DNA of 64,000 nucleotides from Sphagnum compactum. Its lineage: Eukaryota. Made by a program: the position numbers and the translations under genes. The stretch spans positions 4,278,001 to 4,342,000 of the forward strand of contig OZ234494.1 of assembly GCA_965153455.1 (NCBI GenBank). Reading direction: 5' to 3'. This document shows, one piece after another, positions 12,538-18,500 of this stretch; position 1 is the first letter of the stretch, and the number at the start of each line of letters is the position of its first letter. The notes beneath the pieces were generated by a model. It did not search any database. It saw nothing but the letters and a program-made list of their open reading frames with translations, and had not been told where the DNA came from.

Positions 12538-15500
12538 CTACTTTGCAAACCGATAATCTCTTTGAACTGGTGCAACTGGTGGCCGCACAACTCCGACCAA
12601 GGGCAGGCCTGGTTTTCGTCCTGCCAAAATTCACAGGGAGAAAAACAAGTGTATCATCAGCTGCAAGTAGGAGTTTGGACTAGCCTGCAACAGAACAGAC
12701 AAAATCGCAAAATAACATATCTATGAAATTGGAGAGAAATCTGCACAACATTACTTGGAAGGTAGCATGACAATGAGTGCAGTCATAACCTTTTGAGAGT
12801 TGCTCACAAAGTATCAGATTCTCCTGAGGTGCCAATCAACTAGAACTAAAGAAGGACAATTGAATACAGTATGCTCTTTCACTCTAGAAGACAGAAAAAA
12901 ATGAAGTATGCTACACACCATTGAACAGGTTGCTTGAGTAAAATTGGTGCCGGGGATGCAAGATTGCCTGACGAGCAAGGCTAGAACTTGCATCTTCCCC
13001 ATAACCACTATTAGGTGATCCTCCTCCTCCAAAAGCACTGCTTTCAAATCCCCAGTGACTCTCAATCTGTGTAGATGGTAAGAGCCCACCTGGAGAGTTG
13101 CACATACTCTCTACCTCAATGGGTGCATGGGACCTTTGAGGAAGAGAAACTGGTGAGTTTGGTAAAGGTTGATGCTCTGGAGACTGTTGGGAAAACTGCT
13201 GTTGTTGGTGAAAAGAAAGGTTAGAGCATGCTAATGGATTAAAGACCTCCAAAGGTGCTTGCCTCTGGCCCACAAGACCAGAGGATGTCCCAAAGTTCGA
13301 CGACACCTGGAAGCTGTTGAGATGATGAACAGTTTGAATATGAGTCTGAGGCTGGTTCAAAGGATAGATTGGAGGGTGTTGCTCATGCCAGTATTGCAGA
13401 TGTGCAGCTTGCAGTGGCTGTTGTTGCTGGCCTAATCGGCTGGGAGAGTTTTGATCTGGAGAGAAGGGCCCAAACTTTGCTACCACATTGCTGCGTCCAT
13501 AACCTGATTTGAAACCCTGAGATGAGCTCTGGAGCTCTGCACCATTTTGGCACTGCACTGTCCTGAGATAGAAAGCAACAGAAAAATGTAATTCTTAACT
13601 TATAAGTCAACCCAGTTGAGATTAGCATCAAAGTCACAAGAAAATCTGATATAACTACAGTTCAGTAAGCCTAGCCCAACCATTGAGTCTCAGAGGTATG
13701 ATTGTAGTTTGAGGGCTTGCTCGCAACACTGCAAAAACACCTGACTGAAAAATGAAAGTACCTTGCAACATTGTGGCTGCTGGTTACTCCACCTTGTAAA
13801 AGGGGTTGTGGATTGTTCCCCATCAATGAACCAGGACCAAGGCCACTGCCTGGACCAGAGAAGTGGGTTCTGGATCCAGGGCCAGGTCCTAACCGTGCAC
13901 CCCCACTACCCATCACTCCATCTGGGGGCCCCATTCCTGTAATGGAGCTCCCAAACCCAGAATCCAACAATGAATCGTCCTCCAGAAGATGCTCATCTCT
14001 GCCTCCAACCATGAACCACAGCAGTAGTACATGAATATTTGTTCCATTATCTCTTTCTTGCTAAAATCTTCCTGCAATTGTCATACTCTTAAATTTCCAC
14101 TTCAAGTTTTATCTTTTAGCATGGAGGACCAGCTGATAGTTCTTTCCAGAAATTCAGGGCCTTCCTCAATAATTTACTTCAGCAACCTACCTTCTAAAAA
14201 TAGAATGTATGATTTATCATGCCAGGACTGGAGGATTTTCAGCACACCCTGGCACCATCATGTGATGCTAAAAGCAAGCACTAAGCTTTAGAAAAGACTT
14301 GGCTAGAATTTCCTTGCCTGAAATCTGCATCCCAATCAACAGGCCCAGCAGCAAGAGTTTCTGAATCACCCCCATCCACTGAACTATCGGAGGAAGCCAA
14401 AAATGAGCCCCAAGATTGATGATGGATTGTCCCAGCATTGCCACTGTTTCTTGTTGGCTGCCACTGAGGAACCATTCGAACCCCACCTTGAGCATGTGAG
14501 AAACTATTGCCACTTCCAAGCTCCATAATCCCACTAGCATTACTCTGCTGGAGTCTTGCAGCATGGACACTCTCATGAGGGGATGAGCTAGCCCCACCTA
14601 AAGGGGCAAGAAGGGGGAATGCCCCACGACGTTTGATATACTGCCCCACTGCAGCAGCCTCCCTAACAGCATGGGCAGGTGAGGTGGGCCCATGTCGATT
14701 TGGTGAGCCCTGTGAAGGGGAGCTAGGGGACCACAAACCTGATCCTCCTGATGACTGGAATGCTGACCCTGGTGATGTCTGGTATAGGTTACCTGAAGAA
14801 GAGCATGGAAGAATTTTACAAAAAGTCCAATCTGCAGACATCCTGAAGAACCAGTAATCAAATATATATATCTTTCATAAGAATAGAGAAATCTCCATTC
14901 TCACGATGAAGAAGAAACAGCAAGGTTAACACTTCCTCAGGAAGCCACAGAAAGAACCAAACAAGGGGAGACAAAAAAAAAACAAAAAACAAAAAACGCA
15001 CACTGGAATGAACAAAAGTGTCAGTCTGACACCTGTTCAGGCACCATCAACAGTAGTATATATGATAGTGACTTAACTATCACACCTTCCCCACTGACTT
15101 CATCAGCTCCCTACAGTGGGTAAAGGCCAGTGACAAGCACCATCCTACGAACTGAGGTTCTGCTGCAATTCTGGAAGCAACGGGAAGACTCAGCCATACT
15201 ACTGGCTAGCAACAGACCCCACAACAAATACCAGACAAAGAAACAAAGAAAGACCGAAAGGGAAAAGAAGAGGGAAAGACTAAGAACAAGTGGGCTTACA
15301 GGAGGCTCCCCACTTACATGACCCGAAGAAAAATCATTCTGAAAATGCCAAAAGCGGAAATTCCAAACAGGAATTTTTCTTAAGAACCAACCCTCTAGTT
15401 CTCTTTAGAAGAACTTTTAAAGGGTAGCCTTTTGCCTTCAGAAAGACAATAAGACTGACCATCTGGAAGACAAAAAACTTCTTACAACTACAAAGTCTCA

Positions 15501-18500
15501 AGAATCTGTAAAATTGACTATTGATAACCCCCAGCTTTGCAGTCATTGAGATATTGGAGTGAACATGAGGCATTCTAATCATTTCAATACCTGCATACTC
15601 TGGTTGAGAGTGTTTGTCAAAAATATCACAGGATAAACCTTGAGGACTCTGTCTCACAGTGAGATCCAAGATACAAGAGAAGCCTTTAGACATACAATTC
15701 AACTCACAAGAGGTTTTTGGGTATATGCCGCTACCAAAAGAGTCTTGGTTAAGGTACATGAAGTTCTCAAAATCTGGAAAATCAGGAACAAAAAGATCAT
15801 CCACAAACCTATGAACCAAGGACAAACTATGAAGCACAACAGGACATGTGTTACTCTTCAAGAGACGCTTAATGAAATCAAACTCATAGGTAAAGAGATA
15901 GAAATTAGCCAAATAGACCACACAATTAGTACCCATGGGGATACCAATGCATTGTCTATAAACACCCTGACCAAAACAAAGAAACAAATTGTCTAATAAG
16001 AAATCCAGCCAAGAGATCAAATCTGAAGCCTCCACAACTTTGAAGCTATGAAGATTTTCAAACAAATTGATCTCTGCTTTATTTTCCAGCCACAAAAACC
16101 TAAAGTTCAAAGCTGTTTTTTGAACCATCAAAAACTTAAAACAATGAAGCTTCAGCATCTGATTAAGCACTTTATTTATCAGAACTCTCATACGAGCTTT
16201 TAGATCCACTAGGTCAATTTTAGTGTATAGAGTTGAGAAATCAAAAGACTGCAACAGAAGTGGGGAAGCTTTATCACTTTCAGATCTCGAAAGATTAAGA
16301 TTATTTATACCTCCACCACTCCTGGAGAGTCATTGAGAATCCAACTACTATCACAAGGAACATCTGCTTTTTTGAGTTTAGACACCCAAGGGTCATTGAC
16401 CGTAGGAAACATAGCTTTGAAGAAAGAACACAGCCACTTAGAAACATCAGTCAGAGAAGTAGAGCTGGCTGCACAGAAAAATCTAGGTTTAATTGGGTTT
16501 TTATGAAACTCCCAAACAGCACAAAGAAACGCAAGACAAGGGCCACACTTAATACCTTTAAAATTATGAGCCTTATTCAAAGAGAGATGAAATTTCAGAA
16601 TATCAGATTGGGCAAGATTGGAGACCACATATGTACCAACAGGAGAATTAAGCTCAGAGAAAACAGAAGAAACATAAAACTTTCTCCAGACAAACACAAA
16701 GTTGTTACAACATTTATCCATGTAAGTAATGACCAAGGACTGTTGGAGAATCTTTAGGTGATCCAGATTTCCTAAAGGAACAGACAAAGAAGAATCAGAA
16801 GAGGTTTGAACCATGAAGGAAGCACGAGTCCTCTTCTGTACAAACAAAAGAACTTTGGCTTTCCACTCACTTAATATCCCTTGAACTCCTAGAAGCTCTT
16901 CTTGCTTGTTGACAAACTTCTTAAGACCTTTATCAATAGCTTCTTCAATAGACAACATAGACAAGAAGCCACTTCTGAACTTAGTGCCTGTAGAAAAGAG
17001 TTCAATTGGGCTGGGCCTTGAAAGGATATTAAGGTTAGCAGAAATAACATGACCATGATGGGAATCAACAAAACTAGGGAAACGAAAACGAGCACAACCA
17101 GAGTGAATAATTTTATTAAGTTGAGAAGCACGAACAGATCTTCCCAACACCTATAGCTGAAAAACTCTTGACCAGAAGTTTTGACATATTTCCAAGCAAC
17201 TAAGGGAGGGGACCAAAACTTTCTAACAGAAGGAGGAAGACAGTCTAGCACAGAAGGAAGGTTTAAAATGGAAGAGAGATTCAAACCATCCATACGAGAA
17301 GAAACAAAAACAGAGATAATGAGATCTCTGCCTAGGAAAGAGGCACTTGACGAGAAAGAACAAGGAACGTTTCTCTTAATAACCAGTAATCAAACAACTC
17401 TGCAAGAGGCATTGTCAACATAGACCATGATCCTCCTATACAGAAACCCAACAAACCTCAGCCACCTCAATATGTACACTATGACAAGCCTGTAGAGAAT
17501 GTACAACTGTACACTCCAAACACACCTTTGAGGATAACCAACAAAAAAGAACCTGTCAGCAAGCAAAATGAAGTCCAAAAGTACCTGAAGAAGTTTGATA
17601 TTGGGACCCTGGAGAAGCAGCATACTGAGAACCTGGAGATGCCTGGAAGTGAGGAGGACCTGGTGCTGAAAACTGATGAGACGGGCTACCACCTAATGAC
17701 AAGGGACGGCCTCCTCCTGATGGACTCATGCCAAGCTGAGTATGTCCAAGACCTTGACCCAGTCCTTGTATATGTGGAGCAGATAACCGCCTCGCATCTG
17801 GGGATCCTCCAAGCAAGGACATTTGTCCATTCAGTGCTGCTGGGTAACTCACTGACATCCCTGTGCCATCACCATAGCTTCCAAAGCTGCTGCCAAGGGC
17901 ACAATTTTCCCCATAGCTGCCAAAACTACTGCCATGACTGGTTGCTAATGAGTATGGTGTTGCATGTAGTTGTGGGCTACTGTTGAAGGGTCCATATAAG
18001 GTCAAGTTTCCAACCTGCAGGGTTAATCAACTCATCTTAAAAAAGATCAACAGATTCAAGGATCTTCAGGGGAGTCAAGCCCTAAATATCAAGTTGGTCT
18101 CCAAAGAGCTTGATATTGTTCTTGGTGCAATAGACACTAGCAATTCTCTGCTCTCATGGCATTGGCAGCATCAACCCTCCATGCAGAAGAAAACATTACA
18201 GCCAACACATGTTAATGAGATTGCAGAGGCAACTCAATCCTTTGGAGTGCTAAAGTTATGTCATTCCAGCATAAACCAAAACAAACACAAGGAGAATGAC
18301 TTCAGTCTATAACCTGTGTGAGTGTTAAAACATATAAGATTTATCACCTTCATGATGACATGAGATCTAACAGAATGGGTTTATTTCTCAAATGCTGAAA
18401 GCCCTGAAAACTTCCAAGACATCTGAGGCAACACAACAAGCATAGACACTATAGTTGCAGACATTGAAACCTAAAGATCTCTTATGCAAGGTTAGCACAA

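Follow-up and report, generated by a model that had tools for sequence, protein, structure and literature searches.

The 64,000-nt stretch of Sphagnum compactum contig OZ234494.1 analyzed here (the window) contains, in an intron of a YAK1-type protein kinase gene, an inactive 5'-truncated copy of a Chlamys-type Penelope-like element (PLE), whose nuclease region has been lost by truncation. The long copies of the same Sphagnum family encode an N-terminal GIY-YIG endonuclease ahead of the reverse transcriptase (RT), and the copies lie mostly in gene-like DNA on the host sense strand; it is proposed that the family moved by target-primed reverse transcription (TPRT). The probability of this joint reading was estimated at about 0.85. 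The new elements are the host range, a nuclease-bearing family in Sphagnum, and the genic sense-strand placement. Known systems are compared below as they are described in the accessible parts of PMC8557442 (Craig et al. 2021) and PMC9033089.

The window copy and its host intron

The element was found to extend over positions 17382-14869 on the minus strand, with a 14-bp target-site duplication. A first-pass annotation, made from the window sequence, had placed it at 14997..17539, and both ends were corrected by the duplication and by alignment to 29 other copies. On the 5' side, none of the 29 aligned past 17382, from which 17383-17539 was deduced to be host intron. On the 3' side, all reached ~14868, and 14869-14996, left out of the earlier span, is element sequence. 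The features of the copy and its host gene, in window coordinates, are the following.

14869..17382, minus strand: Chlamys-type Penelope-like element, truncated at its 5' end and matching consensus nt 1805-4325 (residues 342-1032 of the frame)
15314..17381, minus strand: broken RT frame with CxC, HGHV, GTKF, DKC, the RT motifs and IFD, and the thumb
15796..15807, minus strand: FVDD catalytic motif, read from sequence and translation
14869..15313, minus strand: 3' untranslated region (UTR), ~445 nt, including T-rich repeats, with terminal letters ...GAAAGATA
14863..14868, minus strand: TATATA filler (6 nt) separating the element end from the target duplication
14849..14862, minus strand: target-site duplication, 14 nt, 3' copy
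17381..17394, minus strand: target-site duplication, 5' copy, overlapped at its last two bases by the beginning of the family homology
12541..25845, minus strand: Sphagnum host gene for a YAK1-type kinase (DYRK family), with the coding span taken from tblastn
14793..17584, minus strand: host intron, GT...AG, ~260 nt without the element, from S. fallax model P0310

The decayed minus-strand RT frame described in the first-pass annotation, with FVDD intact and no C-terminal endonuclease, was borne out, and FVDD was located at 15807-15796. The frame also contains a DKCCNN motif and closes at the family stop codon (15316-15314), with no C-terminal nuclease. The copy differs from the family consensus by 2.8% (Kimura two-parameter distance, K2P); it lacks one base each at ~17148, ~16308, and ~15381, as well as a block of three at 15671, and the same gaps were present in reads and contigs. 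The proposed loss of the endonuclease by 5' truncation held, as the window copy begins at frame residue 342 and the long copies carry GIY-YIG. Pfam searches with the window's own frames gave nothing useful.

The S. fallax model joins an exon ending at 17585 to one starting at 14792, giving an intron of 2.8 kb in which the element is placed 76 nt upstream of the acceptor (3' splice site). The kinase exons are on the minus strand, which is also the element's strand; these exons and this model confirmed the earlier placement within a YAK1 intron in the gene's own orientation. The YAK1 name is borne by one member of the S. fallax protein cluster. The C-terminal exon of the kinase gave a 100% match to a protein recorded under Sphagnum compactum and 81% to an S. 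fallax protein, in agreement with the moss host that had been surmised.

The same insertion was present in metagenome locus L087, differing by 4.7% within the element and 2.8% in the upstream flank, and contigs spanning the junction were found in runs X8 (which carries another organism label), X6, and X11. An empty site at the YAK1 intron, proposed earlier as a check, was not found: X8, X6, X11, and L087 all carry the insertion, and only paralogues were without the element. The corresponding introns of the two paralogues are ~280 and ~515 nt, with L234 collinear on both sides. The insertion into the YAK1 intron appears to predate the split of the sampled moss lineages. In polyA run X22, depth was 19-40 in exon bins and 3.3 in the intron flank, and the element is most likely spliced out together with the intron as an inert passenger.

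Three further observations concern this region. The public gene model P0309 omits ~45 residues around the element-bearing intron (window 17658-14739) that are kept by the S. fallax model, reflecting either an annotation difference or altered splicing. Where this assembly has 4 letters (window 14117-14122), a stretch of 82 letters was present in three further DNA runs, indicating a small intronic deletion in the assembly. A second protein kinase gene lies at ~7749-8600 on the plus strand, tail to tail with the host gene.

The family, its protein, and its classification

The search of the own genome with the element gave 47 matches from 40 scored of 967 candidates, and 30 loci were taken. Loci dropped were L012 (a duplicate of L009), 8 repeats in one set, and 5 repeats in the set collected with the terminal 24-mer; L236 and L237 look like one duplicated locus and are counted as two. 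The copies have a common 3' end, variable 5' truncation, and mostly target duplications of 11-20 nt. Of the 29 other loci, 15 extend to the point where the window copy starts, and their sequence upstream of it was shared family DNA; the longest body bounded by a target duplication was 4334 nt. Five of the 18 long stretches showed a fragment of the 3' end, next to it one and the same piece of ~80 nt, which starts with a T run, and then the start of a body or unit. These arrays are partial tandem or pseudo-long terminal repeat (pLTR) arrangements of the kind for which the first-pass annotation had proposed a check, and their unit is ~4.4 kb. The full unit consists of a leader of ~860 nt, one frame of 1032 codons, and a 3' UTR of 445 nt; L073, L074, and the first unit of L076 are internally deleted derivatives.

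The exact terminal 24-mer, at 14869-14892 in the window copy, was found 219 times (control, 0), which is a lower bound on the number of 3' ends. Contig depth at the 3' end added up to between several hundred and >1000x that of the flank and was not used for copy number. Of 35 long alignments, 31 diverged from the consensus by 1.6-5.5% (K2P) and the other 4 by 9-10%, and no intact copy was seen among the family copies examined. The Sphagnum family looks old and is probably inactive.

Some loci have been multiplied with their surroundings. Five near-full-length copies (L068-L071 and L033) are 98-99% identical, have both flanks in common, and represent one intronic insertion multiplied by segmental duplication; three are near contig starts. 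Their host gene, which gave no Pfam hit, we take to be CWC22-like. Leader fragments of ~280 nt recur at a spacing of 730 nt in L079 (G000 C20) and other C20 matches, and the small contig C20 holds a cluster of many pieces starting at one family position.

The consensus frame, read from stop to stop, has the domain order GIY-YIG, linker, CxC, and RT with IFD. The N-terminal GIY-YIG in this frame was recovered by collecting copies for a full-length consensus, as had been recommended. Its motifs by residue are the following.

Consensus nuclease (span 82-192): GVIY 82, YVGQT 97, RFQEH 108, ERKW 176, RGYN 189
Consensus downstream motifs: CxC (CAC) 438, GTKF 474, DKC 564, RT motifs 721-914

The nuclease assignment is supported by a Pfam match to GIY-YIG (PF01541) at E 3.8e-4 in both of the two long-copy frames tested and by a profile built from 20 relatives, which matched I-TevI at E 2e-6. 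The R, H, E, and N motifs are present. The consensus nuclease has neither the CCHH nor the CX2-5CxxC zinc finger; there is no cysteine between GVIY and YVGQ, with one before and one after. Both CxC cysteines are nearly invariant in alignment A3. The predicted structure of the RT (predicted local distance difference test score, 86) returned telomerase for all of the top 16 Foldseek matches in the PDB (best E, 2.7e-10), and a group II intron RT was matched by the model at 3e-3 only. Going by this model, the RT is closest to telomerase RT in a structural, not a phylogenetic, sense. The frame ends after the thumb and is followed by the 3' UTR; the C-terminal GIY-YIG that fuller copies might have revealed is absent. 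It is, by comparison, present in Penelope/Poseidon (including Dryad), Neptune, and Hydra.

In the leader, ~230 nt ahead of the long frame (L068:1455-1690) are well conserved, with several possible hairpins. A structured leader was considered and is not claimed (z, -2.1; 7 of 200 shuffles equally stable; covariation term 0.07, meaning no net covariation).

The closest named relative, among the best 120 of 401 matches, was protein KAH7429047.1 of the fern Ceratopteris richardii, with 54% identity over residues 598-1028; this protein model has no N-terminal part, and the comparison is limited to the RT side. Among the same matches, a protein of the ichthyosporean Amoebidium parasiticum (EukProt EP00123 P019056) gave 32% over ~1000 residues, with the same order of an N-terminal nuclease without CCHH. 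In EukProt, the A. parasiticum protein P0124, with 1054 amino acids, an N-terminal GIY-YIG lacking CCHH, and an RT, is itself a Chlamys-type element. Search with the nuclease region gave 7 proteins, all 71-84% alike, none from a named non-moss host. An unnamed relative of the RT (P0146) carries a RING finger (Pfam E 1.7e-9). A quick IQ-TREE analysis covered 79 rows, the consensus plus 78 of 313 proteins, which were classed by the pattern of their nuclease motifs. On the no-CCHH side, the moss family grouped with Ceratopteris and three further proteins without names (SH-aLRT 100), outside the 28 CCHH-bearing rows, which form one side of a branch with SH-aLRT 98.

The family is classed as Chlamys-type, with an N-terminal endonuclease, and as neither Naiad nor PLE-X. 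The first-pass annotation had assigned the copy to the permuted Naiad/Chlamys clade; this is upheld by the N-terminal GIY-YIG, CxC, GxKF, IFD, and lack of a hammerhead. The assignment could be narrowed to the Chlamys side because CCHH and CX2-5CxxC are lacking, DKC stands in place of DKA, and the IFD is long. The IFD span (RT3 to RT4) is 103 residues; spans counted by hand in the accessible Fig. S1 text of PMC8557442 are 65 for Penelope, 91 for Naiad-1_Skow, and 103 for Chlamys-1_cAtm.

Horizontal transfer of an animal-type Naiad element into peat moss was considered, since Naiad-type proteins are among the listed matches (24-31% identity) and GIPMGTNCA is common to Naiad-1_Skow and Naiad-1_Pfla in PMC8557442. 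Naiad shares the permuted endonuclease-RT order, CxC, GxKF, IFD, and lack of a hammerhead with the moss family. As described there, Naiads differ in having zinc fingers (CCHH and CX2-5CxxC) and DKA, in targeting (TA)n, and in having animals as hosts. The motif differences, an IFD of 103 rather than 91 residues, the position outside the 28-row CCHH clade, and the fern relative at 54% largely refute this origin, which is considered highly improbable.

An endonuclease-less, hammerhead-bearing family of the PLE-X type is also unlikely. PLE-X1/X2 from Chara and Selaginella resemble the moss family in their Chlamys-group RT with CxC and in their streptophyte hosts, which include a land plant, and the accessible text of PMC8557442 mentions moss BlastP hits only for this nuclease-less type, so that a moss family of this type would have been foreshadowed there. 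That paper describes a PLE-X N-terminal extension with CxCX1-8C behind an intron, and a 28-codon stop-bounded frame in the moss leader contains CKCRHC, which fits this motif; the codons coincide with a palindromic hairpin, and no spliced read was seen. PLE-X1/X2 differ in lacking GIY-YIG, in having hammerheads, and in the 28S ribosomal DNA (rDNA) target in Selaginella. Against this type, the long copies of the moss family encode the GIY-YIG domain, the unit is 4.4 kb rather than 5.2-7.4 kb, and neither an rDNA nor a microsatellite target was seen in the flanks. No hammerhead was found by Rfam (0 matches at E up to 1 in 4 long loci, which also had no other Rfam family) or by eye, as none of the 4 CTGANGA sites has stem II and GAAA.

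Target sites, genic placement, and mechanism

Of 49 copies, 37 have direct repeats of at least 11 nt, with one mismatch allowed; among flank pairs mismatched as a control, 20 of 2352 did. Directly beyond the 3' end, 43 of 46 copies have T and 27 of 46 have TT; the first T may be the element's own. The T-rich target suggested in the first-pass annotation is supported by these bases and not by the ttttttgtt repeats on which it had relied; those repeats, near 14975-14997, are part of the family 3' UTR rather than target sequence. No (CA)n or (C)n microsatellite target was seen in the flanks, which are unique sequence with target duplications. TTTAGGG-type telomeric filler occurs directly at the 5' junction of L026 and L066; as a junction feature it was rejected (2 of 184 windows versus 12 of 4800 in the background, not significant).

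The copies lie mostly in gene-like DNA on the host sense strand. Flank GC was at least 0.355 at 49 of 50 loci and in 17 of 40 random stretches (p 6e-7), and the flanks were T-rich on the element strand at 44 of 50 loci compared with 18 of 40. The two genes identified in the window region each have a T-rich sense strand. In an unranked sample gathered by the exact 24-mer (25 new loci of 30), the GC threshold was reached by 24 of 25 and the T-skew by 21 of 25. The metagenome gave 36 of 39 for each measure over 39 independent flank clusters. The ranked samples were chosen by similarity and the unranked one by the exact 24-mer, and both disfavor decayed copies. Pfam host domains, searched for in the longest frames on both strands at 49 loci (432 and 264 frames), were found at 22 of 49, with 20 on the element strand and 2 opposite (p 1.2e-4); both opposite-strand domains score under the Pfam cut-off. 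Hosts include ribosomal protein L5, RNA polymerase II subunit 2, eIF4B, and PRT6 domains. PolyA reads on the element ran ~100-900:1 toward the host-exon strand in 3' bins, and 362 of them continue beyond the element 3' end into flanks that differ from one another, as would result from read-through at numerous sense copies but also from the element's own transcription. One random control stretch (L224) contains an open frame of 894 codons whose motifs resemble those of an endonuclease and an RT and were read as an L1-type long interspersed nuclear element.

After the TPRT model in the accessible part of PMC8557442, the family would have moved as follows. The GIY-YIG domain would nick the A-rich strand, opposite a short T-rich spot, and the RNA 3' end, running into a U tract (the T tract in tandem units), would pair with one to three A residues at the primer. 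Early stopping of the RT would give 5' truncation, and a second nick 11-20 nt away would create the target duplication. Priming at T-rich spots on sense strands that are themselves T-rich would produce the strand bias, to which the loss of antisense copies has probably added. For the genic concentration, access to transcribed genes at insertion is the most likely cause, at somewhat better than even odds.

The pattern could instead have arisen after insertion. Insertion would have been near random, with intergenic copies decaying or being deleted at a higher rate. Intronic copies in antisense, which are A-rich on the mRNA strand, would have been purged, the T-rich sense strand being tolerated as resembling a plant intron. 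This is consistent with the age of the family (the K2P divergences given above), with the match of 5 of 44 metagenome flank clusters to genome loci, with an element sense strand of 38.5% T and 22.4% A, and with samples picked by similarity or the exact 24-mer, which are biased against decayed copies. Loss after insertion is, however, opposed by the unranked copies, which at lengths down to 35-250 nt were still gene-like in 24 of 25, and by both element pieces present in the 40 random stretches (85% and 68% identity), which were at GC 0.41 with the sense-type skew. AATAAA was no commoner on the antisense strand (2 versus 5), contrary to an antisense purge, and neutral intergenic copies would be expected to survive a divergence of a few percent. 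Post-insertion sorting is a real contender, though judged less likely than not.

A number of points weigh against the Chlamys assignment and the targeted, TPRT-based placement proposed here. GIY-YIG and RT were found together in one open frame at no single locus examined, and the majority consensus was built from 48 alignments, with only 6-13 copies covering the endonuclease part. The GIY-YIG Pfam score of 21.1 bits is 1.5 bits short of the curated cut-off (22.6), and the RT alone gave no Pfam hit and 0 PDB sequence hits. No ATG precedes the GIY motif, the first Met being residue 95, inside the nuclease motif. The tree rows include no named Chlamys, canonical PLE, or telomerase RT references and no outgroup. 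As to placement, GC and T-skew are proxies for genes, the skew was opposite in 6 of 50 and 4 of 25 flanks, 27 of 49 loci were without a Pfam hit, one gene was recognized on both flanks at only 3 loci (L004, L030, and L190), and the comparison was with random stretches only. No splice joint across the element-bearing intron was among the 15 of 65 joints listed.

Relation to known elements and significance

The moss family comes nearest to the minimal Chlamys type of PMC8557442 (Chlamys-1_meVir and Chlamys-1_cAtm), where Chlamys is defined by the features found here. The likeness includes the N-terminal GIY-YIG without zinc fingers, CxC, DK, the long IFD, no hammerhead, 5' truncation, partial tandems, genome-wide spread, and a length within 3.3-8.2 kb. 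Unlike that type as described, the Sphagnum family combines a land-plant host with a nuclease, is bounded in unique sequence by clear target duplications of 11-20 nt, is strongly biased toward genes and their sense strand, and has no ATG ahead of the nuclease motif; many, not all, of the published Chlamys families target the microsatellites (CA)n or (C)n. The Dryads of conifers (Penelope/Poseidon type; PMC8557442 and PMC9033089), compared by description only, are likewise endonuclease-bearing PLEs in land plants. They differ in their C-terminal nuclease, in having no IFD, and in being attributed to transfer from arthropods.

In its accessible parts, PMC8557442 lists no endonuclease-bearing Chlamys from land plants, and its supplement contains none of the names Sphagnum, Physcomit-, Ceratopteris, Amoebidium, Bryophyta, and Marchantia. 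PMC9033089 gives the land-plant PLEs as Dryads and endonuclease-minus PLEs. The suggestion of a little-described bryophyte family stands insofar as the accessible literature, preprints included, yielded no description of the Sphagnum family, though an entry in repeat libraries (Repbase, Dfam) may exist; the moss BlastP hits already on record are for the PLE-X type. The same literature gave no description of an orientation or placement bias of this kind for PLEs.

We tentatively hypothesized a wider scheme, with the odds somewhat against it as a whole: a land-plant lineage of endonuclease-bearing Chlamys elements, present in peat mosses and ferns since early land plants, that would target transcribed genes, prime on the template strand, land in introns in the sense orientation, be copied within host pre-mRNA, and be translated without AUG from a structured leader.

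The endonuclease-bearing land-plant PLEs on record in the accessible parts of PMC8557442 and PMC9033089 are conifer Dryads only, and the Chlamys relatives of Selaginella are without a nuclease. A Sphagnum family of several hundred copies, with a fern relative, fills this land-plant gap. Because Pfam does not recognize its RT, such a repeat is overlooked by annotation pipelines. Naiad/Chlamys insertions mostly sit in microsatellites, which makes their junctions difficult to resolve, and the hundreds of clean target duplications here permit inferences on how enzymes of this class prime and on the geometry of their nicks. Insertions common to moss lineages provide presence/absence markers. If the bias does represent targeting, the family would occupy a new PLE niche, the gene body instead of a microsatellite, rDNA, or the telomere.

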